DNA of 64,000 bases from Promethearchaeota archaeon (GTDB lineage: Archaea; Asgardarchaeota; Lokiarchaeia; Sigyniarchaeales; SOKP01), in contig JAGXOA010000008.1 in NCBI GenBank assembly GCA_019894715.1, forward strand, positions 6,710-70,709, written 5' to 3'. Numbering within the stretch: position 1 is the first letter of the stretch; each line of letters opens with the position of its first letter. The notes beneath the pieces are model-generated. The model was not told the DNA's origin. It saw nothing but the letters and a program-made list of their open reading frames with translations, and searched no databases. Below, piece by piece: positions 27,701 through 43,226 of the stretch. A program made the translations under genes and the position numbers.

Positions 27701-27815
27701 TTTTTCTATTTTTCTTTTTATTACAAATTTTCAAATTTAAGTAATATTTTTTAAAGTGTGCTTTTGTATTTATTTTAGATATATATCTAAAATAAACACA
27801 AAAATTCTATTCATT

Positions 27816-29132
27816 ATGAACCAAAACACTAAGGATTTAATTGATATTGCTGAGGAGAAAAATAAGATTCACACACAATATGAAACTGTTATTTCTTCTC
27901 TTAGAGAAGAAATAAATAGATTAAAAAATATCATAAAAGAACAGAACATAGTAATAGAAACACAAAAAGTTAAGTCTATCGTAAAGAAAGATGATATCCC
28001 TTCTGATATTAAAATCCTAAAAGATTTAATTATCTCACAGAGAGAAGAATTAGTAGAAAAAGATAAGGAAATATTATTTCTACGGGAACAAATAGAAAAA
28101 TCAGATACTAAATTTTTAGATGGGAATAATCTCTCAACTAAAACTGCTTATCAGGAAGAATTATTTGGAGCAAATCAAGAAATTATGGAATTGTCTATTG
28201 ATATAGAAAATTATATTAAACAAATTGAAACTTTAAAGCAAATTATTGAAGAAAGAAACACAAATGAAGCATTAAATCAATTAACTGAAAAATTAGAATT
28301 AGTTACAAAAGAGAGAGAAAATTATAAGCTAATAAATGAAGATTTAGAAATTCATTTAAATTATATACAAAAAGAAATGGATAATCCAAATATTGAAATA
28401 AATGAAAATTCAAATAATTCCAGTGTTATTGATGAAATATTAAAAGATATAGAGGAAGAAAGAAAAATTGTTAGTGAAAAAATAGTTAATTATGAGGAAA
28501 AAATAAGTAATCTTCAAAATGATATAAATGACAGAGATAATCGATTAAATCAATTATCAGAACAATATGAAAATATAGAGAAAGAAAATAATCAATTAAA
28601 TAACCAAATTCAAGATATTCAAAAAGAAAGAAAATATGAAGAAAAAGATATATCTGAAGAAATAATTGGTCAATTAGAAAAAGAAATCAATGAGTTAAAA
28701 AATAGAATTACTCAAACAAGTTCTTCTATTAAACCAATTAACCATGATTTAATCAAATCAAAACATTTAGAGCTTGAAAATCTCCCTAAATATTATCAAT
28801 TACTCTTTTTAGAAACTCTTTTTTCAAATATAACTGAAAGTAATAGGAATGCAATTATAGATTCATTGGTAAGGAATTTAAGAAGTACTAATTCAGATAT
28901 TAGGAGATTCGCAATAAAGATTCTTAGAAATATAAAAACACAAAAAATCTTCGATGTTCTCAAAGATCTTGTTGATGATAAAGAATGGTTAATAAGATAT
29001 TATACAATAAAAGCATTAAGTGAATTTGAGCAAATTGAAAGTTTAGATAAAATCATGACGGAAATATTGAAAGATAATGATACTGATGTTAGACAATTAG
29101 CGAAAAATTATTTCATCAAAAACAATTCTTAA
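27816..29132 (+). CDS. coiled-coil protein with C-terminal HEAT/PBS-lyase-like repeats
   Basis: Preferred ATG at 27816 (MNQNTKDL). Long heptad-rich Glu/Lys/Asn region. C-terminus has NSDIRRFAIKILRNI..DKEWLIRYYTIKALSEF..DTDVRQLAKNYF. Confidence 0.6.
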   Translation: MNQNTKDLIDIAEEKNKIHTQYETVISSLREEINRLKNIIKEQNIVIETQKVKSIVKKDDIPSDIKILKDLIISQREELVEKDKEILFLREQIEKSDTKFLDGNNLSTKTAYQEELFGANQEIMELSIDIENYIKQIETLKQIIEERNTNEALNQLTEKLELVTKERENYKLINEDLEIHLNYIQKEMDNPNIEINENSNNSSVIDEILKDIEEERKIVSEKIVNYEEKISNLQNDINDRDNRLNQLSEQYENIEKENNQLNNQIQDIQKERKYEEKDISEEIIGQLEKEINELKNRITQTSSSIKPINHDLIKSKHLELENLPKYYQLLFLETLFSNITESNRNAIIDSLVRNLRSTNSDIRRFAIKILRNIKTQKIFDVLKDLVDDKEWLIRYYTIKALSEFEQIESLDKIMTEILKDNDTDVRQLAKNYFIKNNS

Positions 29133-29252: not shown

Positions 29253-30056
29253 ATGAAAATTGCGGTTTCAGGCAAAGGGGGTGTAGGTAAGACCTTAGTA
29301 GCTGGTACTTTAGCAAGATTATTTGCTCAAGAAGGTTTTAAAGTTTTAGCAATAGATAATGATTCAGCTATGAACTTAAGTTATACATTGGGGATTAGTA
29401 AAGAGACAAGAGATAAAATTATTCCAATTTCTAAAATGAAGGAATTAATAAAAGAAAGAGTTACCATAGAAGGAGGTGGTCCGGGTATTTATAATATTAA
29501 TCCTAAAGTTGCCGATATCCCTGATCAATATAAAATAACTGGACCTGATGGTATTGAATTACTTGTTTTAGGTTCTATCGAAGATCCACTTACAGGTTGT
29601 CTGTGCCCTGAAAATGCTTTAATTAAATCATTATTACATAATCTACTAATAAAAAGAGATGAAATAGTTATTGTAGATTTTGAAGCAGGTTTAGAACATT
29701 TAGGTAGAGGAACCGCTAAAGGAATTGATTTAATGTTAGTTATAACTGAACCTACCCAAAAATCTCTAGAATTATCTTCAAAAATTATTGAGTTATCAAA
29801 AAAACTAGGTATCATTAATATATATCTAATAGCTAATAAAATAATTGATGATAATCAAATTACTGTAATAAATCAAAAAATGACTGATTGGGAAATACCT
29901 TTATATCATAAAATACCTTATGATAAAGAAATAGGAAAAGCAGATTTAGAAGGAATATCTCCTATAGACTTTAATCCAAATTCAAAATCTCTGAATGCAA
30001 TTAGAACTCTGTTTTATAACCTTTCCAAACTAAAAAAAGAAATATTTGATTTATAA
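29253..30056 (+). CDS. cooC: CooC-type (MinD/Mrp-class) nickel-insertion ATPase
   Basis: Deviant Walker A MKIAVSGKGGVGKT, the Cys-x-Cys metal motif TGCLCPENA, and VIVDFEAGLEHLGRG. Confidence 0.75.
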   Translation: MKIAVSGKGGVGKTLVAGTLARLFAQEGFKVLAIDNDSAMNLSYTLGISKETRDKIIPISKMKELIKERVTIEGGGPGIYNINPKVADIPDQYKITGPDGIELLVLGSIEDPLTGCLCPENALIKSLLHNLLIKRDEIVIVDFEAGLEHLGRGTAKGIDLMLVITEPTQKSLELSSKIIELSKKLGIINIYLIANKIIDDNQITVINQKMTDWEIPLYHKIPYDKEIGKADLEGISPIDFNPNSKSLNAIRTLFYNLSKLKKEIFDL

Positions 30057-30524: not shown

Positions 30525-30932
30525 ATGCTAATTCACGAAGTAGGTATTTTAATAGAAAGTATACCAGTAATTTGTAGAAAATATACTAAAAGGGAAGATC
30601 CTGTGGGAATAACTAGCAAGAGCGCATTAATTTCAAGTTTAATTAATTTTGCGGAAAACTTAATATCTCCCCTTGAATATTTTGAGAGCAATAATTACAA
30701 TATTATTTTTAAAAAGAAAAAAGGGAATAATGAGCTAGAAGCCGATTTTTTTATTTATATTGTTACAAAGAAAATAAAAAATTTTGAGAAGAAATGGAAA
30801 AAAAAAATGATGATTTTACTCGAAGATATTTTAAATAAGTTTTATTCAAAATATAATATCAAAGATTATTATGAAGTATCAATTTTTTCGGATTTTAATA
30901 AGATTATTGATAATTTGATCAATAATCTTTGA
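30525..30932 (+). CDS. hypothetical 135-aa protein
   Basis: ORF upstream of the hydrogenase operon. No motif recognised. A longin/roadblock-like alpha-beta fold is only a guess. Confidence 0.4.
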   Translation: MLIHEVGILIESIPVICRKYTKREDPVGITSKSALISSLINFAENLISPLEYFESNNYNIIFKKKKGNNELEADFFIYIVTKKIKNFEKKWKKKMMILLEDILNKFYSKYNIKDYYEVSIFSDFNKIIDNLINNL

Positions 30933-31165: not shown

Positions 31166-32530
31166 ATGATAAAAAATATAGAAGATAATGATAATATCGT
31201 TGAGTCTCGTGTTAAAGTTGCGTTTCTACAATCCAGTGATTGTTGGGGATGTCATCAAAGTCTTTTAAATGCACATTTAGGCCTATTACCCGTGCTTCCA
31301 GCATTAGAAATTGTCTATTGGCCATGTGTAGTTGATTTCAAATATGAATCCTTGGAAAAAAGAGAAGATGGAGAAATACTTGTAGGTTTTGTTGAAGGAA
31401 GTATGAGAACAAAACAAGATATTGAAGCCAGTAAACTAATGAGGAGAAAATGTCAGCTTATTATTGCTTTTGGTAGTTGTTCATGCTATGGAAATGTCCA
31501 TGGATTGGCAAATCAATTTAGTATAGATGATCTTAAAAATCGAAAATTCTTAGAAGTTGAGAGTATAGCAGACTATAGTAATAGAATTCCGGATGAACAT
31601 GTCCCTAGTTTTGAAAATAAAATAGTTCCTTTAGACAATGTAATAAAAGTAGACGCTTATATTTCAGGATGCCCTCCAAAACCAGAACAAATTATTAGTT
31701 CTGTATTATTTTTGTTGGGGCAGAAACCATTTCCTATGAATGTATCTGCCTTCTGTAATGAATGTTCATTAAATCAATCTGGATGTATATTAGATGAAGA
31801 AAAGATTTGTTTTGGAGCAATCACCAGTACAGGATGCACAATGAAATGTCCAGAAAATGGAAAAGCATGTGTAGGATGTATGGGTCCTGCTAGAAATGTA
31901 TCTTCAAAGATTGATAAATTAAATAAAATTACTGATGATTTGAATTCCATTAGCTCAGGAGATAAAAAAAATTTATATGAATTTTTAACATTATTCTTGA
32001 ATATTCCTCTAATGGCTGGATTTGATTTAGCTGGAGATATTTTAAAACAGATTAAAAACAAAGGAAAGGTGTCCACTCCATTAACAAATCTTCCATCAGC
32101 CATAGAAGAAGTCACTTCTAAATTATTGCAATATCTAAGAGATAATAAAAATTTCCATGAAATTTCAAATGTATGTGATACATGCTCCAGGATAATAGGA
32201 AGTAGATCGACAATGACCAAGGTAAAAAGGGATTATGAAGGTCTACCAAATTTAGAAGAATGTTTAATTGAGCAAGGATATATTTGTATGGGGCCTGTGA
32301 CTAATGCAGGATGTGGAGCTATGTGTATTAATGTTAATGCTCCCTGTTCAGGATGTTATGGACAGACTAAATGGGATGTTAATCAATCTGAAAGATTTGC
32401 TGATACAATACTCAAAAGTTTTAATGTAAGTATTTCAAAAGAAGAATTACTATCACAAGTAAAAGATCACATTGGTACTTTTGAAAAGTTTACATTAGCA
32501 TCAAATAAAGGATATAAAGGAGGAGAATAA
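31166..32530 (+). CDS. vhuG: [NiFe]-hydrogenase small subunit, group-3 (MvhG/VhuG-like), with an extra Cys-rich module
   Basis: N-terminal domain SDCWGCHQS, FGSCSCYGNVHG and SGCPP. C-terminal part has two successive 8-Cys blocks, CNEC..GC..ICFGAITSTGCTMKCPENGKACVGCMGP and CDTC..EC..YICMGPVTNAGCGAMCINVNAPCSGCYG. Confidence 0.8.
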   Translation: MIKNIEDNDNIVESRVKVAFLQSSDCWGCHQSLLNAHLGLLPVLPALEIVYWPCVVDFKYESLEKREDGEILVGFVEGSMRTKQDIEASKLMRRKCQLIIAFGSCSCYGNVHGLANQFSIDDLKNRKFLEVESIADYSNRIPDEHVPSFENKIVPLDNVIKVDAYISGCPPKPEQIISSVLFLLGQKPFPMNVSAFCNECSLNQSGCILDEEKICFGAITSTGCTMKCPENGKACVGCMGPARNVSSKIDKLNKITDDLNSISSGDKKNLYEFLTLFLNIPLMAGFDLAGDILKQIKNKGKVSTPLTNLPSAIEEVTSKLLQYLRDNKNFHEISNVCDTCSRIIGSRSTMTKVKRDYEGLPNLEECLIEQGYICMGPVTNAGCGAMCINVNAPCSGCYGQTKWDVNQSERFADTILKSFNVSISKEELLSQVKDHIGTFEKFTLASNKGYKGGE

Positions 32531-32532
32531 TA

Positions 32533-33837
32533 ATGGTTAAAGAGATAGAAGTTGAACCAATTACTAGATTAGAAGGTCATGGAGGTCTTAGAGTAGTTTT
32601 AGGAGATGATGGAAAAGTACAAGATGTTCAATTTAATATAACTTCTACAAGATTTTTTGAGAAATTTTGTGAAGGACGTTATTGTGAACATATACCAAGA
32701 ATAACAACAAGAATTTGTGGTATTTGTCCAATTCCCCATCATCTAACGCCAACTAAAGCTGTAGAAGATGCTTGGGGTGTAAAAATACCTACTCCTGCAT
32801 TAAAATTAAGACAGCTTTTAATGAATGCAAAGCAATATAGCTCCCATGTTTTACATTTCTACGCTTTAGCTGCACCTGATTTTCTATTAGGTCCTATGGC
32901 AGATCCAGCATTAAGAAATGTAGTTCATGTTATAAATAAAATGCCAGATGTGGGTGCAATGGCATTAAAAATGATGGATTTTGGTCAAAAATTATGTGCC
33001 GCTATAGGTGGAAAATCTATCCATCCCATTTCTGCAATTGTTGGTGGTATGAAGAAACCTTTAGATGAAGAAATCCGTGATAAATTTCTAAAAGAAATAG
33101 ATGAACAAATAGAATTTACAAAAAAGACTGTGGATATTGGACTAAAAATTGTAGAAGATTATTGGGATGTTGTTGCGAATGTTGGTGTAGTTCCTACATA
33201 TTATCTTGGATTAACAAAAAATGGTGTCCATGATATCTATGAAGGAGATATTCGAATTGTGAATCCAGAAGGGAATAAGATTGATTATAATGCACATAAG
33301 TATCTTGATGTTTTAGGAGAACATATACCAAAACATTCTTATGCGACTCATATGTATTATAAACCAGCAGGATATCCAGAGGGAATTTACAGAGCTAATT
33401 GCTTAGGTATGATAAATGCTGCTGATAAAATGGCAACACCATTAGCAGATGAAGCCTTAAAGGCTTTTAGAGATAAAGTAGGACCAGTCTCTCATCATAC
33501 ATTTGCTTATCATTGGGCCCGAATAATTGAAACAGTTGAGGCTATTGAACTTATAAAAAAATATCTTGAAGATCCAGATATATGTAATCCAGATTGCAAA
33601 ACACTAGATATAGAACCTAGAGAAGGTCAAGGAATAGGTGTAACAGAAGCCCCACGTGGAGTTCTTTTATATCATATATGGTCTGATGCGGAAGGAATAT
33701 GTAAAAAATTAAATTTACTTGTAGCAACAAATCATAATATAGCAGGTATAGAAAAATCTCTAATGCATGTCGCAAAACAAGTATTTGAAGATAAAATTTT
33801 AGAAAGATTAAAATTACCAGACCCTTGGATAAAATAA
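32533..33837 (+). CDS. vhuA: [NiFe(Se)]-hydrogenase large subunit lacking the C-terminal Ni-binding motif (VhuA-like)
   Basis: N-terminal ITRLEGHG and the L1 motif RICGICPIPHH. The ORF ends ...LPDPWIK without a DPCxxCxxH motif, which is supplied by the next mini-gene. Confidence 0.85.
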   Translation: MVKEIEVEPITRLEGHGGLRVVLGDDGKVQDVQFNITSTRFFEKFCEGRYCEHIPRITTRICGICPIPHHLTPTKAVEDAWGVKIPTPALKLRQLLMNAKQYSSHVLHFYALAAPDFLLGPMADPALRNVVHVINKMPDVGAMALKMMDFGQKLCAAIGGKSIHPISAIVGGMKKPLDEEIRDKFLKEIDEQIEFTKKTVDIGLKIVEDYWDVVANVGVVPTYYLGLTKNGVHDIYEGDIRIVNPEGNKIDYNAHKYLDVLGEHIPKHSYATHMYYKPAGYPEGIYRANCLGMINAADKMATPLADEALKAFRDKVGPVSHHTFAYHWARIIETVEAIELIKKYLEDPDICNPDCKTLDIEPREGQGIGVTEAPRGVLLYHIWSDAEGICKKLNLLVATNHNIAGIEKSLMHVAKQVFEDKILERLKLPDPWIK

Positions 33838-33885
33838 CTTAAATAAATAAAAAATTTTAAAAAAATTAAAAAAGTGAAATATCAA

Positions 33886-34035
33886 ATGAGTGATATACCA
33901 GAAGGAGTAATAAATCTCTTAGAAATGGTAGTTCGCTGTTATGATTGCTGACTATCGTGTGCCGCCCACATTACAGTAGTTGATGAGGATGGTAAAGAAA
34001 TTTATACTCGTAAGCTAAATGTTGGCTTAGGATGA
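33886..34035 (+). CDS. vhuU: VhuU-like selenocysteine-containing C-terminal fragment of the hydrogenase large subunit (in-frame UGA at 33949-33951)
   Basis: ATG 33886, preceded by gtga. Reads MSDIPEGVINLLEMVVRCYDC-TGA-LSCAAHITVVDEDGKEIYTRKLNVGLG, stop TGA 34033-34035. The UGA occupies the first Cys of the canonical R.YDPC.SCA.H motif. Not in the ORF track because of the UGA. Confidence 0.75.
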
Positions 34036-34054
34036 TTGTCCAATAAAAAAAATA

Positions 34055-34093
34055 GATTGGACATAACTAACCTCGCATGGGTTATAGCCAATA
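34055..34093 (+). promoter_or_regulatory. candidate SECIS stem-loop in the vhuU 3' UTR
   Basis: ATTGG-AC-ATAAC-taa-CC-tcgcat-GG-GTTAT-AG-CCAAT. Two 5-bp helices are separated by an AC/AG internal loop, with a TAA bulge, a 2-bp GC clamp and a 6-nt apical loop. It starts about 20 nt after the stop. Confidence 0.4.
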
Positions 34094-34150
34094 TAAAAAA
34101 GATTAAATAGAGAAAATAGAAAATAACAATCTAAGATGTGAAAATAAATT

Positions 34151-34660
34151 ATGATAGATTTTGAATTTAGAAAACAAGTTATGGATTACCATATGGGTTC
34201 TAATATTATCAAATATTGTTATCAATGTAGTAGATGTACAGATTATTGCCCTGTATCAAAAGTAACAAAAGATTTTTATGGTACTACTGGATATGATCCA
34301 AGACATAATATCTTAAATGCATTATTAGGATACAAAGAAGCTATTTTTTCTTCTGATCCATTAACAATCTGGGGTTGTACTGTTTGTGACACTTGTGATG
34401 AACTCTGCCCTCAAAATATAGAATTAACAGAAATATTTACTTTCTTAAAAAATGAAAGTATTACTAAAGGAGAAGGTCCTGACTATTTATATAGTCAAGC
34501 AAAAGCAATTTTTGAAAATGCAAAAGCAATACCATCACAATCCGCAATAGAAAGAAGAAGACAACAATTAGGATTGCCGGCTGTTGCTACTCCTAATGTT
34601 AAAGAAATACAAACTTTACTAAGGAATATTGGATCAGATAAAAAACTGAAAGAGGAGTAA
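34151..34660 (+). CDS. hdrC: HdrC-like 2x[4Fe-4S] ferredoxin-domain protein
   Basis: Two cluster motifs, CYQCSRCTDYCP and CTVCDTCDELCP. Immediately upstream of an HdrB-like gene. Confidence 0.7.
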   Translation: MIDFEFRKQVMDYHMGSNIIKYCYQCSRCTDYCPVSKVTKDFYGTTGYDPRHNILNALLGYKEAIFSSDPLTIWGCTVCDTCDELCPQNIELTEIFTFLKNESITKGEGPDYLYSQAKAIFENAKAIPSQSAIERRRQQLGLPAVATPNVKEIQTLLRNIGSDKKLKEE

Positions 34661-34665
34661 AAAAA

Positions 34666-35538
34666 ATGACCGAATATAAAATGTTTGAGGGTTGTACGAT
34701 TGGAAATAGAATACCATTCGTAGAAGCTGCATCCAGAAAAGTTTTTGAGATTTTAAATATTCAAACATCTCAAGCTCCTTTTTCATGTTGTCCAGATCCA
34801 ACAGGAATGAAGAGTTTTGATAATAATGCTTGGCTTACTATAGGAGCAAGGAACTTGAGCTTAGCAGAAGAAGAAGATAAGAATATTATTTCTTTATGTA
34901 ATGGATGCACTAATACATTAAGAGGTGTAAAACATCAATTAAAACATGATTCTTCTAGGAAAGAGAAAGTAAATGCAGAATTAGCTAAAATTGGGAAGGA
35001 ATATAAAGGATCTATTGATGTTAGACATTTTGTTGATGTATTAAAAGAAAAATCAGATGATATAAAAAATGCAATAACAAAGCAATTAAGCAATTTGAAG
35101 GTTGCATGTCATCCAGGATGTCATTATATGCGACCTTCTGAATGGATGGAATCTGATGATCCTATGCATCCAACGACATTAAAAGAAATAGTAACAATCT
35201 CAGGAGCAAATATAGTTGATTATGGTGTTGAAGCTCTTTGTTGTGGCTCAGCTGTTCATAATGCTTATGAAGAACATGGACTTCAGATATTAAAGGAAAA
35301 ATTAGATGCTGTTAAAAAATCAGGAGCAGATGTTATCTGCGTAAATTGTCCAGCATGTTTCCAACAATTTGATACATTACAGAGAAACGTTTCAAAGAAA
35401 TTTGAAAAAGAATATAATATTCCTATTTTATATCTCACAGAATTATTAGCTTTAGCAATGGGAATAACACCTGATGAAATTGGTTTAAAATTTCATAGAA
35501 TTCGTCTTAAATCTGTAATTGAAAAATTAGAATTGTAA
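34666..35538 (+). CDS. hdrB: HdrB-like protein with two CCG (Cys-rich) domains
   Basis: First CCG domain FSCCPDPTG..LCNGCTN. Second ACHPGCH..ALCCGSAV..VNCPACFQQF. Confidence 0.75.
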   Translation: MTEYKMFEGCTIGNRIPFVEAASRKVFEILNIQTSQAPFSCCPDPTGMKSFDNNAWLTIGARNLSLAEEEDKNIISLCNGCTNTLRGVKHQLKHDSSRKEKVNAELAKIGKEYKGSIDVRHFVDVLKEKSDDIKNAITKQLSNLKVACHPGCHYMRPSEWMESDDPMHPTTLKEIVTISGANIVDYGVEALCCGSAVHNAYEEHGLQILKEKLDAVKKSGADVICVNCPACFQQFDTLQRNVSKKFEKEYNIPILYLTELLALAMGITPDEIGLKFHRIRLKSVIEKLEL

Positions 35539-36695: not shown

Positions 36696-37745
36696 TTAAC
36701 AGATTCTTGGAATGGGTTCTCCAATAGGCATATCTATATATCTAGTTCCGCCTACAATTGTTTTCAATAATACATTTTTAGGATTGTCTACTTTTACGAC
36801 ACCAATTATTTCCGCCTCGTTACCTATTTTTGTTTCTTTTATCTTTTCTAATATCCTTTCAGAATGATTAGAATCTACTGCTAAAAGAGCTCTTCCTTCA
36901 CATGCTATATTATAAGGATCTAGTCCAAGCATATCACAAATTGCTTGAACTTGTCTTTTAATTGGTATTTTTTCTTCTTCAATATGTATGCTAAGATTAT
37001 TTTTTTTTGCCCAATCATTTAGAGCACCAGCAATTCCTCCTCTTGTTGGGTCCTTCATAGAATGTACATAATTATTTTGAATTTCATTTTTTATTGAATC
37101 TATTATTGGAGATAACAAAGCTATATCTGATTGAAGATCCGTTGATATATCAAATCCTTCTCTTGTTGCCATGAGAGCTGTTCCATGATCCCCAATGGAT
37201 CCTGTTAATATGATTTTATCACCTACTTTAAGATTCTTATCCTCAATTTTTATACTTTTATTTCTTATTCCTATTCCTGTTGTGGTTATTATTATTTCGT
37301 TTAATGTTCCTCGAGGCATAACTTTTGTATCCCCGGCTATTATAGCAATATTAGCTCTTGCTGCTGTTTTATTAAAAGAATTAACAATTTTATCTAATTT
37401 TTGTAATTCAAATCCTTCTTCAATAATATAGCATGAAGTTAATGCTATGGGTTTCCCACCCATCATTAGAATATCATTTACAGTACCACATATACTTAAT
37501 TGTCCTAAGTCTCCCCCTGGGAAAAAAATAGGAGAAATAGTATGACCATCTGATGTGATAATTAATTCTTTATCATAATTCTCCAAAGGGATTGTAGCAC
37601 CATCATCTAATTCTCCTACACCTATTCCATTATTTATATTTTTAAGGGATATATTTTGAGTTATAAAATTAATTAGTTCTTCTTGTAATATACCACCAGC
37701 TCCATGAGCTAATCTAATAACTTTTAAACTCTCTTTTTCACTCAT
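36696..37745 (-). CDS. hypE: hydrogenase maturation protein HypE
   Basis: PurM-like fold. HGAGG, DPTRGG and the C-terminal PRIC motif. Confidence 0.9.
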   Translation of the reverse strand: MSEKESLKVIRLAHGAGGILQEELINFITQNISLKNINNGIGVGELDDGATIPLENYDKELIITSDGHTISPIFFPGGDLGQLSICGTVNDILMMGGKPIALTSCYIIEEGFELQKLDKIVNSFNKTAARANIAIIAGDTKVMPRGTLNEIIITTTGIGIRNKSIKIEDKNLKVGDKIILTGSIGDHGTALMATREGFDISTDLQSDIALLSPIIDSIKNEIQNNYVHSMKDPTRGGIAGALNDWAKKNNLSIHIEEEKIPIKRQVQAICDMLGLDPYNIACEGRALLAVDSNHSERILEKIKETKIGNEAEIIGVVKVDNPKNVLLKTIVGGTRYIDMPIGEPIPRIC

Positions 37746-40776: not shown

Positions 40777-41373
40777 TCAAGCGTCCTTCATTAATTTTTT
40801 TCCCGAGCACCTCATTCGATACAATTTCCCACTAAATGGATGGATGATGGCCACCAAGTCATCTACCATCTCACTTTCTGGACTTTTTTTATCCAATTCA
40901 TGCAAGTAATTGACAGAGACGTTAAATTCTGCTAAATAATTTTGCAAATATTCAAATCCAAACCTAGTGAGCCAGTCCTTATACGTCAGCAGGACATGCG
41001 AAAAACAATTTTTTCTCGCATCTCGCACCATTTTCCACAGATTTTTCCGGCGGATATTCAATCCTGAAGCTACGTCCTTGTAAACATGATTTACCTTTAG
41101 ACCGATTTTTTTTGCATGCTCTTTGAGTTGTTCCACTTGCCGTTCCAAGTCACCTCGCTTGGATTGTTTGTGTGAGGAAACTCTTTCATAAATGACGCAG
41201 GTGTTTTTAAAACTTGAATGAGGATGAGATATTTCTTGTTTATAGGAATTCTTAAGTATTAATCGCTTGATTTCGAGAACAGGAAATCGTCGATGACCTC
41301 CCAGAGTTCTTACGCAAGTAATTTTTCGCTTTTTTTCCCATCGACGTAGAGTCTTGATGCACACTCCAAGCAT
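40777..41373 (-). CDS. tnpA: IS607-type serine recombinase transposase (MerR-like HTH plus resolvase catalytic domain)
   Basis: HTH LGVCIKTLRRWEKKRKI and catalytic VIYERVSSHKQ..DLERQ. The homologous frame continues upstream (..YIIGITAL before the first Met) without a canonical start codon. Confidence 0.8.
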   Translation of the reverse strand: MLGVCIKTLRRWEKKRKITCVRTLGGHRRFPVLEIKRLILKNSYKQEISHPHSSFKNTCVIYERVSSHKQSKRGDLERQVEQLKEHAKKIGLKVNHVYKDVASGLNIRRKNLWKMVRDARKNCFSHVLLTYKDWLTRFGFEYLQNYLAEFNVSVNYLHELDKKSPESEMVDDLVAIIHPFSGKLYRMRCSGKKLMKDA

Positions 41374-41771: not shown

Positions 41772-42593
41772 TTGACATTAACAAAGCGTATTATTCCTTG
41801 CCTAGATGTCACAAAAGGAAGGGTTGTAAAAGGAATTAAATTTCTTGAATTAAAAGATGCTGGAGATGCTGTACAATTAGGAAAATTTTATGATGAACAG
41901 GGTGCAGATGAACTTGTATTTTTAGATATCACTGCTTCTTCTGATAAACGAAAAATCTTAATAGATTTGGTAGAAAGAACTAGTGAACAAGTTTTTATTC
42001 CTTTTACTGTTGGAGGAGGCATACGTACTGTTAAAGATATAAAAGAAATTTTACGAGCAGGGGCAGATAAAGTCTCTCTAAACACATCTGCTGTCAAGAA
42101 TCCCAATGTTATTAGAGAAGGTGCAAAAATATTTGGATCTCAATGTATTGTAACTGCAATTGATGCAAAAAGAGTATATATTAATTCTCCTGAAGAAGCA
42201 AAAGATAAAATAATTATAAAATTACAAAATAAAGAAAAATATTGTTATTGGGAAGTATACATACACGGAGGAAGAACTCCTACAGGAAAAGATGCAATTC
42301 AATGGGGAATAGATGCTCAGAATTTAGGCAGTGGTGAGATATTACTAACTTCAATGGATATGGATGGAGTAAAAGAAGGTTATGATTTAGAACTTACAAA
42401 AGCATTTAATGAAAAATTAAGTGTACCAATCATAGCATCAGGAGGTGCAGGGAACCCTCAACATATAATAGAGGCTTTTACAAAAGGAAAAGCCGATGCT
42501 GCATTAGCGGCTTCTATATTTCACTTTGGAGAATATACAATTGAAGAAGTTAAAAATTTATGTCAAAAAGAAGGAATTCCTATGAGGATATAA
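41772..42593 (+). CDS. hisF: imidazole glycerol phosphate synthase cyclase subunit HisF
   Basis: TTG start. Motifs [26 protein letters not shown] and ASGGAG. Confidence 0.9.
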
Positions 42594-42596
42594 AAT

Positions 42597-43226
42597 ATGA
42601 CATTCTATATTGCGATAATTGATTATGAAATGGGTAATCTGAAGAGTATTACTAAATTAATACAACATTTAGGAGCTAAAAGCATTATTACATCAAATCA
42701 TAAGGAGATTTTTAACGCTAATGGAGTAATATTACCTGGTGTAGGTGCATTTGGAGACGCTATGGAGCAATTAAGAAAGAAAAATCTTATTTCTGCTATT
42801 AATCGTTTAAAGGAAGATAATAAACCTCTATTTGGAATATGTCTTGGTCAGCAACTATTATTTTCAAAAAGTCTAGAAATGGGTGAACATGAAGGATTGG
42901 ATCTGATAAAAGGTTCAGTTATACCTTTTGATCTGAAAAAGGTAGATAAAGTTCCTCAAATTGGCTGGAATTCTGTTAATTTTATAAATAATGATCATTA
43001 TCTAACAAAAAATATTCCTAATAATTCCTATTTTTATTTTGTCCATAGTTTTTATGTAAATCCAGAGAATAGAAATGATATAATAGGAATTACTAAATAT
43101 GGCGAAATTGAGTTTAGTTCTATAGTATTTAAAGATAATATTGTTGCGACACAATTCCATCCAGAAAAATCTAGTAAACATGGAATAATGATGTATCAGA
43201 ATTTTATAGATTATTGTAAGAAATAG
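42597..43226 (+). CDS. hisH: imidazole glycerol phosphate synthase glutaminase subunit HisH
   Basis: IAIIDYEMGNLKS, the nucleophile-elbow GICLGQQLL, and QFHPEKS. Confidence 0.9.
   Translation: MTFYIAIIDYEMGNLKSITKLIQHLGAKSIITSNHKEIFNANGVILPGVGAFGDAMEQLRKKNLISAINRLKEDNKPLFGICLGQQLLFSKSLEMGEHEGLDLIKGSVIPFDLKKVDKVPQIGWNSVNFINNDHYLTKNIPNNSYFYFVHSFYVNPENRNDIIGITKYGEIEFSSIVFKDNIVATQFHPEKSSKHGIMMYQNFIDYCKK

Follow-up and report, generated by a model that had tools for sequence, protein, structure and literature searches.

How the active site of a [NiFe] hydrogenase could be completed when its large subunit ends before the C-terminal nickel ligands is the question raised by a 64-kb stretch of a Lokiarchaeota (Promethearchaeota) metagenome-assembled genome (MAG; G+C ~27%), referred to here as the window. 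The open reading frame (ORF) at 32533–33837 encodes a large subunit of 434 residues that carries RICGICPIPH near its N-terminus, a clear RxCGxCxxxH motif, and ends in ...KLPDPWIK followed by a stop codon, the C-terminal DPCxxCxxH motif being absent. We conclude with high confidence that the locus contains, starting 48 nt past the large subunit, a real and clade-typical gene of an already known type: a vhuU that encodes a selenocysteine (Sec)-containing mini-protein and is accompanied by a Sec insertion sequence (SECIS) of the lokiSECIS kind, folded into a three-way junction.

Among the structures of the Protein Data Bank (PDB), the large subunit matched 9sfi_g best (418 aa, E 6e-123), with 5odc_F (MvhA) and 9sw2_F also at the top, and its top NCBIfam match was NF041785 VhuA (466 bits over model positions 3–417 of 418, under the equivalog cut-off). 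With its RxCGxCxxxH motif and with MvhA and VhuA as closest relatives, the protein appears to belong to group 3c, the Mvh/Vhu-type [NiFe] hydrogenases. An NCBI MAG labelled 'Candidatus Lokiarchaeota archaeon' encodes a protein with 100% identity to it, and since its 120 best database homologues all measure 433–435 aa, the short large subunit represents the norm of the clade.

The mini-gene begins at ATG 33886 behind an A/T-rich spacer and reads MSDIPEGVINLLEMVVRCYDC-TGA-LSCAAHITVVDEDGKEIYTRKLNVGLG-TGA, with the internal TGA at 33949–33951 and the terminal one at 34033–34035; the segment past the internal TGA starts with LSCAAH and ends with NVGLG. Joined to each other, the large subunit and the mini-protein aligned in one colinear stretch with the Methanothermococcus thermolithotrophicus MvhA (5odc_F); in this alignment vinllemvvrcydcClscaahi stands opposite vlnymemliraydpClscathi, placing the UGA on the first Cys of DPCLSCATH. 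For the mini-protein alone, the best PDB match was 9sfi_M, a 27-residue 'F420 non-reducing hydrogenase subunit' (...LRAYDPXYSCAAHM) that belongs to the same PDB entry as 9sfi_g and whose X (Sec) lies opposite the UGA. With C written in place of U in the query, the top NCBIfam match was NF041786 VhuU (57.6 bits over model positions 4–42 of 45, below the equivalog cut-off of 70 bits). Scores under such strict cut-offs indicate a homologue rather than a strict equivalog of methanococcal VhuU, and the two proteins together appear, judged by homology to their methanococcal counterparts, to form a VhuA/VhuU-type split [NiFeSe] large subunit. The identical large subunit is also encoded on a public ENA contig, where gene calling leaves the interval up to the next gene empty, so that the mini-gene is unannotated in practice.

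A scan of one genome per species of the Genome Taxonomy Database (GTDB) yielded 80 related loci, mostly labelled Promethearchaeota/Promethearchaeia with some Odin-, Hod-, Hermod- or Thorarchaeota, and addition of the ENA contig (L001) brought the set to 81. In 79/81 loci, from independent assemblies and samples, the mini-ORF was present and had its TGA at the same codon; no motif was found in the remaining two. RC[YF]DC-TGA-LSCAAH is invariant among these 79 loci except for a single DF-TGA (L078, 4346–4459), the tail ...NVGLG with its stop is conserved, and the TGA itself is invariant in all 73 distinct complete sequences. For the latter, nucleotide diversity at the three codon positions was 0.11/0.03/0.34 before and 0.12/0.03/0.41 after the TGA, while both alternative frames are closed and full of stops, indicating that the sequence past the UGA evolves as coding sequence (CDS) in this frame. 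These alignments show purifying selection past the UGA and point to translation that continues through it. The codon following the UGA (33952–33954) is CUA in 76/77 sequences, as compared with 11% CUA among the Leu codons of neighbouring genes, and the UGA-C context thus appears to be under selection. Likewise, two extra cysteines beside the Sec (33937–33948; RC[YF]DCU versus RAYDPU/C in Vhu/Mvh) are invariant in the clade, in Sec and Cys forms alike, except for the DFU of L078; that one of them serves as selenenyl-sulfide partner of the Sec is one possibility. In 59 loci the mini-gene directly follows the large subunit; in 10 others it comes after hdrC and hdrB, at a distance of ~1.5 kb, which marks it as an autonomous gene.

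The locus had been read once before, from its letters only, and most of that original prediction stands. It had noted the N-terminal motif and the missing C-terminal one, followed the frame from ATG 33886 through the TGA into LSCAAH, and proposed a detached Sec-containing VhuU-like C-terminus that standard ORF calling would overlook; the sequence, the NF041786 match and the empty interval on the ENA contig agree with it on each count. The assignment of the UGA to the first ligand Cys is borne out by the alignments to 5odc_F and 9sfi_M, the view that an accidental stop is very unlikely by the recurrence of the TGA, and the expectation for orthologous loci by LSCAAH following it in the same frame. 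Its statement that Sec use had been reported for Lokiarchaeota matches PMC4989117. The remark that DCU is unusual holds relative to Mvh/Vhu proteins, which have DPC or DPU, and fails within the Asgard clade, where DCU is the norm and the Cys mini-proteins have DCC.

The SECIS element occupies 34019–34094, forms a three-way junction and overlaps the 3' end of the CDS, the UGA of its AUGA being the stop codon of the gene (Table 1). As defined by Mariotti et al. 2016 (PMC4989117), a lokiSECIS consists of AUGA just before a 9-bp stem and of an 11-nt apical loop that mostly has A at its first five positions and closes with an ultraconserved G, usually preceded by A; the same paper describes AA in VhuU and an AUGA that doubles as stop codon in VhuU.1. 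The window reads AUGA / UUGUCCAAU / AAAAAAAAUAG / AUUGGACAU / AA at 34032–34066 and displays every one of these features, with an A-rich loop beginning with five A and ending in AG on a helix II of nine positions, comprising eight Watson–Crick pairs and one U·U. Furthermore, Huang et al. 2024 (PMC11227280) gave AUGA_AA for Lokiarchaeia frhA and a lower-stem signature [U/C]GG_C[C/U][A/G] for frhA-type genes, which is present here as UGG at 34023–25 with CCA at 34088–90, two flanking pairs covarying. The codons Leu+26 and Gly+27 are UUA in 71 and GGA in 73 sequences, respectively, and form the invariant UUAGGAUGA of the 5' half of the core region, arguing that the NVGLG tail is at least partly constrained at the RNA level. 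Individual loci depart from the common form: the core is UUGA instead of AUGA in L005 and L009, a TAG stop two bases before an intact AUGA (GAUGA) places the stop outside the core in L032 and L057, and a G-to-U change breaks one stem pair in L001 (3021–3107), which comes from another sample and encodes the identical large subunit.

We analysed the RNA in 78 distinct orthologous sequences, testing column pairs against 500 shuffles and slid controls. Helix II covaries (UUGUCCAAU/AUUGGACAU, AUAUCCAAU/AUUGGAUAU, UUAAUCAGU/ACUGAUUAU, UUGUUCAAU/AUUGAACAU), with 7 of its 9 pairs changed on both sides and 95% of cells paired. For helix I the pairings GUUGGC-GCCAAY, GUUGGU-ACCAAC, GUAGGC-GCCUAC, GUAGGU-ACCUAC and GUCGGC-GCUGAC were observed, GUU/GUA going with AAC/UAC and GGC/GGU with GCC/ACC, which indicates that synonymous third positions of the CDS covary with the 3' untranslated region (UTR); its seven core pairs (columns 7–13) were 96–100% paired in the model-guided alignment. 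Helix III is found in all 78 sequences, with 97% of cells paired and two pairs changed on both sides. Taken as a whole, the three helices had 89% of cells paired in the MAFFT alignment, with 10 pairs and 79 cells changed on both sides (values reached by 0–1 of 500 shuffles), and 91% in the model-guided alignment, with 12 pairs and 87 cells (0 of 500 shuffles), compared with 26–47% paired for the slid controls. RNAalifold recovered the same three helices unprompted, and 34015–34100, folded as a single sequence, likewise has the three-way junction as its minimum free energy (MFE) structure (−21.9 kcal/mol, z = −4.0; equalled in none of 200 shuffles). The comparison of orthologues thus shows a covarying RNA structure.

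The element is also unique in its surroundings. A structural pattern scan of both strands of the window found all lokiSECIS features at the 34032 site only, and the covariance model gave exactly one match per locus, with no second SECIS copy in the 611,725 bases of the window and L001–L081; a strict regular expression over all loci returned 56 vhuU sites and two CDS matches resembling chance. No Rfam family matched the window at gathering thresholds, and permissive searching of 33800–34200 gave chance-level matches only (E >= 2).

As a tentative proposal that we expect to fail rather than to hold, the vhuU SECIS of Lokiarchaeia would be a three-way junction instead of the simple published stem-loop, with its lower helix in the last codons, within a tail that is probably cleaved off, and the GC mini-hairpin (helix III), invariant for the GC of its loop, as a second functional module. 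The mini-hairpin could then be a docking site for an archaeal SECIS-binding factor (no SBP2 is known in archaea according to PMC4989117) or the counterpart of the GC-clamped Methanococcus SECIS, and, if true, the vhuU SECIS would link the two types of archaeal SECIS as a physical intermediate. An unlikely alternative places the mini-hairpin (34068–34084) outside the SECIS, as a separate RNA processing or stability element or as a regulator of hdrC. It is conserved more than covarying, lies in the vhuU–hdrC intergenic region and does not figure in the published lokiSECIS of 9-bp stem and 11-nt loop. However, it sits between the two strands of the covarying helix I and so topologically inside the element. 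The order of the genes provides a further test: in ~10 species it is G-A-hdrC-hdrB-U, with vhuU last and then a T-rich run, and elsewhere G-A-U-hdrC-hdrB, and in both arrangements vhuU keeps its complete SECIS, mini-hairpin included. That the mini-hairpin travels with vhuU even where this ends the operon argues that it belongs to vhuU and not to hdrC.

The original prediction had placed a plausible SECIS elsewhere, in a two-helix hairpin at 34055–34093 composed of an outer ATTGG/CCAAT and an inner ATAAC/GUUAU helix, a UAA bulge and a CC/GG clamp, which would make the element Methanococcus-like. We consider it very unlikely that this hairpin is the functional element. Its complementary segments (ATTGG/CCAAT, ATAAC/GTTAT, CC/GG) are physically in the sequence, it contains the truly conserved GC mini-hairpin along with the helix I 3' strand, and the MFE structure of a fold starting at 34030 holds part of its pairing. 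This fold was discarded as misleading because its start cuts off the helix I 5' strand. Among the 78 sequences, 79% of the hairpin's cells were paired and only one pair and two cells had changed on both sides; 127–468 of 500 shuffles reached the observed values in four of five measures, and for the fifth, the covariation score, 3/500 did, one slid control scoring higher. Pairing fails at column 52-87 in 16 sequences and at column 57-82 in 73, and in the outer helix it fails at just the position whose partner by covariation is the Val codon. Compensatory changes follow the three-way junction instead: CCAAU→CCUAC is partnered by GUUGG→GUAGG in the CDS and not by AUUGG, whereas AUUGG→ACUGG is compensated by CCAAU→CCAGU in the 5' arm. 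The conserved GAA_A bulge of the Methanococcus type is absent, the bulge being UAA in the window and mostly UG(C) among relatives, nor is an asymmetric GAA_A internal loop conserved, the sequence 5' of the GC stem being (G/A)ACUG in most loci and AACUAA here, with UUAAA on the 3' side. The hairpin was thus mis-paired and missed the core, and the covariation assigns the element to 34019–34094.

Cys-type relatives offer an independent view on the link between the UGA and the RNA element. Public mini-proteins are of two kinds, namely translations with TGA read as Trp and genuine Cys forms (DCCLSCAAH), the latter from genomes that carry labels such as Thor- or Sigynarchaeota. Downstream of the Cys-type mini-genes of two lineages, L082 and L083/L084, no match to the SECIS model was detected, and several Cys-type proteins without SECIS have C-terminal ends other than NVGLG, in keeping with an RNA constraint on that tail; L082 adjoins HdrA-like and FlpD/MvhD genes. 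A third lineage (L085, 2501–2720; L086, 608–827) carries a Cys-type mini-gene, DCCLSCASH (TGT-TGC) with a tail NVKQE before the stop, that retains a SECIS copy (67 bits, model R1) in which the helix I 5' strand has decayed; the mini-hairpin persists in the L085 relic, as it would if part of the SECIS. This looks like a recent Sec-to-Cys conversion. The lack of a match in L082–L084 and the decayed copies in L085/L086 together argue that the SECIS element tracks the UGA.

The same relatives bear on an extremely unlikely reading in which the UGA is decoded as Trp or Cys, by code reassignment or near-cognate read-through, and the product is an ordinary [NiFe] subunit. Stop-codon recoding is reported for some Asgard lineages (PMC9723677), the Sec machinery goes unseen in the window, and some public gene calls (P0121-P0128, P0130 and P0139; ENA, JGI, NCBI and Logan entries) indeed translate orthologues as DCWLSCAAH...GLGW.... 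These translations read through the real stop as well, into non-conserved sequence, and are therefore artefacts of a wrong genetic code. TGA terminates 7/41 long ORFs of the window, including a full-length cyclophilin and a phosphoribosyltransferase, and is thus an ordinary stop in this genome, contrary to genome-wide reassignment. Moreover, the UGA position is a Ni-ligand Cys or Sec in every homologue, the UGA co-occurs with the conserved SECIS that the Cys-type L082–L084 lack, and full Sec machinery is present in about 86% of Lokiarchaeia/Helarchaeales genomes (PMC11227280). Finally, standard gene calling reports nothing beyond a truncated large subunit, as it would for a broken gene that had been pseudogenised by a chance stop or a frameshift, or misassembled, with the downstream frame as a relic. 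This reading has negligible probability in view of the same split and TGA in 79 independently assembled and sampled loci, the 48-nt spacer leading to a conserved ATG, the removal of vhuU by ~1.5 kb behind hdrC and hdrB in 10 loci, the strong purifying selection on both parts, and the occurrence of the A+U split also in Cys form and in the solved Vhu structure 9sfi.

For the Sec-encoding vhuU, a mechanism can be outlined by analogy with known systems. The UGA at 33949–51 would be decoded by Sec-tRNA(Sec) brought by the archaeal Sec-specific elongation factor, as in the known archaeal/eukaryotic pathway, and the RNA element, starting 83 nt downstream of the UGA and folded at 34019–34094, would direct this recoding, presumably together with a factor that binds it. 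The terminal UGA lies inside the SECIS core and would hence be read as a stop rather than recoded. VhuU would then join VhuA, and the Ni-Fe site may be made up of Sec22 and Cys25 together with the VhuA residues Cys62 and Cys65. Cleavage during maturation probably removes the 21 residues behind His28, as in VhuU and other large subunits, which would explain why the tail is free to be shaped by RNA constraints.

Several observations weigh against this interpretation. Besides the NCBIfam scores, which stay under the cut-offs for VhuA and VhuU alike, the first helix II position in the window is the U·U mismatch, and helix III is mostly conserved with little covariation, so that the case for its pairing is chiefly one of conservation and thermodynamics. 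Neither tRNA-Sec nor EFSec, PSTK, SepSecS or SPS was found within the 64-kb window, Pfam scans of 20 further ORFs included, and ARAGORN detected no tRNA of any kind there. The cited Asgard selenoprotein literature reports no experimental selenium incorporation, and a Loki vhuU SECIS was inactive in Methanococcus maripaludis according to PMC11881835. It was tested there as an exchanged 3' UTR; if nothing but the UTR had been exchanged, the construct may have been incomplete, since AUGA and the helix I 5' strand lie in the CDS.

The mini-gene is embedded in the operon vhuG-like / vhuA-like / vhuU / hdrC-like / hdrB-like, flanked by hypC, hypD, hypE and hypF (Table 1). The top NCBIfam matches of the HdrC- and HdrB-like proteins, TIGR03290 and TIGR03288, are both under cut-off, and their genes probably share one operon with vhuU. 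MvhD/VhuD and HdrA genes were not found beside the operon, where only hdrC- and hdrB-like genes were seen, the ORFs of the window having been scanned in part; nor was a recognisable maturation endopeptidase gene seen near it. The small subunit (31166–32530) exceeds the 286 positions of the VhuG model by ~170 aa and matches this model in three separate stretches, which suggests inserted or extra Cys-rich sequence. An ORF of 135 aa between hypC and the hydrogenase operon (30525–30932) has no Pfam or NCBIfam match.

Table 1. Positions of the hydrogenase genes and of the parts of the SECIS element in the window (coordinates of the alternative gene order refer to the locus named).
Feature	Position	Strand	Description
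[NiFe] hydrogenase small subunit, VhuG-like, 454 aa	31166..32530	+	Pfam Oxidored_q6; top NCBIfam match NF045875 VhuG, 228 bits versus a 450-bit cut-off
[NiFe(Se)] large subunit, VhuA-like, 434 aa	32533..33837	+	N-terminal RICGICPIPH; without C-terminal DPCxxCxxH
vhuU-type selenoprotein mini-gene	33886..34035	+	49 codons plus stop; conserved start MS[DE]
UGA read as selenocysteine (predicted), residue 22	33949..33951	+	First Ni ligand of the motif D20-C21-U22-L23-S24-C25-A-A-H28 (33943-33969)
SECIS helix I 5' strand AUGUUGGCU	34019..34027	+	In CDS, codons Asn-Val-Gly-Leu; pairs with 34086-34094
Conserved UAGG	34028-34031	+	Just 5' of AUGA
AUGA, kink-turn-type SECIS core	34032..34035	+	UGA doubles as vhuU stop; ATGA in nearly all loci
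SECIS helix II and apical loop	34036..34064	+	Arms 34036-34044 / 34056-34064; 11-nt loop AAAAAAAAUAG at 34045-34055
AA, 3' half of SECIS core (AUGA_AA variant)	34065..34066	+	GA in about half of relatives
Helix III, GC-clamped mini-hairpin	34068..34084	+	UAACCU-CGCAU-GGGUUA here; usually UGCCC-UUGCAU-GGGU; conserved GC in loop
SECIS helix I 3' strand AGCCAAUAU	34086..34094	+	3' UTR; carries CCA of lower-stem signature
Hairpin of the original prediction	34055..34093	+	Not conserved as drawn; overlaps helix II 3' arm, helix III and helix I 3' strand
HdrC-like (34151-34660) and HdrB-like (34666-35538) genes	34151..35538	+	Pfam Fer4 and CCG domains
Alternative operon order (vhuU last)	L006 4362-5994		Also L010, L016, L025, L028, L029, L036, L050, L061, L073, L077

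Further genes of the region were noted in passing. A protein with an AIRS domain at 36696–37745 ends in PRIC and adjoins hypD; presuming that HypE proteins end in PRIC, we set SelD aside as its identity and read it as HypE because of this end and the hypD neighbour. Directly downstream of hypF, a serine recombinase (resolvase domain, MerR/HTH N-terminus) is encoded on the minus strand at 40777–41373, beside hisF/hisH-like genes (41772–43226). On the other side, upstream of hypC and of a CooC/ParA-type P-loop ATPase (29253–30056), lies a 458-aa protein (27756–29132) whose long N-terminal part is coiled-coil and of low complexity and which has HEAT repeats at its C-terminal end.

This MAG and essentially all public genomes of Lokiarchaeia lack an annotated gene that completes the active site of the Vhu/Mvh-type hydrogenase, and some databases hold wrong translations with TGA read as Trp. 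A metabolic reconstruction that scores the large subunit as lacking its C-terminal ligands would mistake the enzyme for an inactive one. For reporter tests of Asgard SECIS elements, the exact boundaries of the vhuU SECIS are needed, as it extends over CDS, stop codon and nested mini-hairpin; if the three-way junction proposal is true, it also offers a possible reason for the failure of the vhuU SECIS in M. maripaludis.

Compared with eukaryotic type I SECIS elements, the upper helix has 9 positions instead of ~12–14, the element overlaps CDS and stop codon, and it holds an extra hairpin in an internal loop. Compared with MvhA of the MvhAGD-HdrABC complex (group 3c, 5odc_F), VhuA plus VhuU are colinear to one MvhA and the linkage to Hdr-type subunits is common to both, whereas MvhA is one polypeptide with Cys and here there are two polypeptides with Sec. 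The VhuA/VhuU pair of the Methanococcales (NF041785/NF041786; 9sfi_g, 9sfi_M) shares with the present locus the ~420-aa A chain, the tiny U peptide with Sec-x-x-Cys-x-x-His and a VhuG-like small subunit. It differs in having DPU instead of DCU and RAYD instead of RC[YF]D, a GAA_A-type SECIS instead of the kink-turn AUGA type, and vhuD instead of hdrC/hdrB-like neighbours; the host here is not a methanogen.

The closest known system is that of the Lokiarchaeota themselves. VhuU is one of five Lokiarchaeota selenoprotein families reported by Mariotti et al. 2016 (PMC4989117), and Huang et al. 2024 (PMC11227280), who use the names FrhA/MvhA/VhuU, observed this family in 68% of the Asgard genomes that use Sec. 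The main texts of the two papers do not state a lower helix built from Val-Gly codons with synonymous covariation, a GC mini-hairpin in the 3' internal loop or the two operon orders. This finer anatomy of the vhuU SECIS (three-way junction, lower helix in the CDS, mini-hairpin) and the decaying SECIS after Sec-to-Cys conversion are possibly new. Otherwise the locus adds nothing unexpected to the published Asgard selenoprotein picture: it shares the phylum, the ~50-aa single-Sec VhuU, the AUGA with 9-bp stem and 11-nt loop AAAAA...AG, AA in place of GA, the overlap of AUGA and stop codon and the UGG_CCA stem, and, as nothing essential differs, represents another instance of the Lokiarchaeota VhuU with its lokiSECIS.

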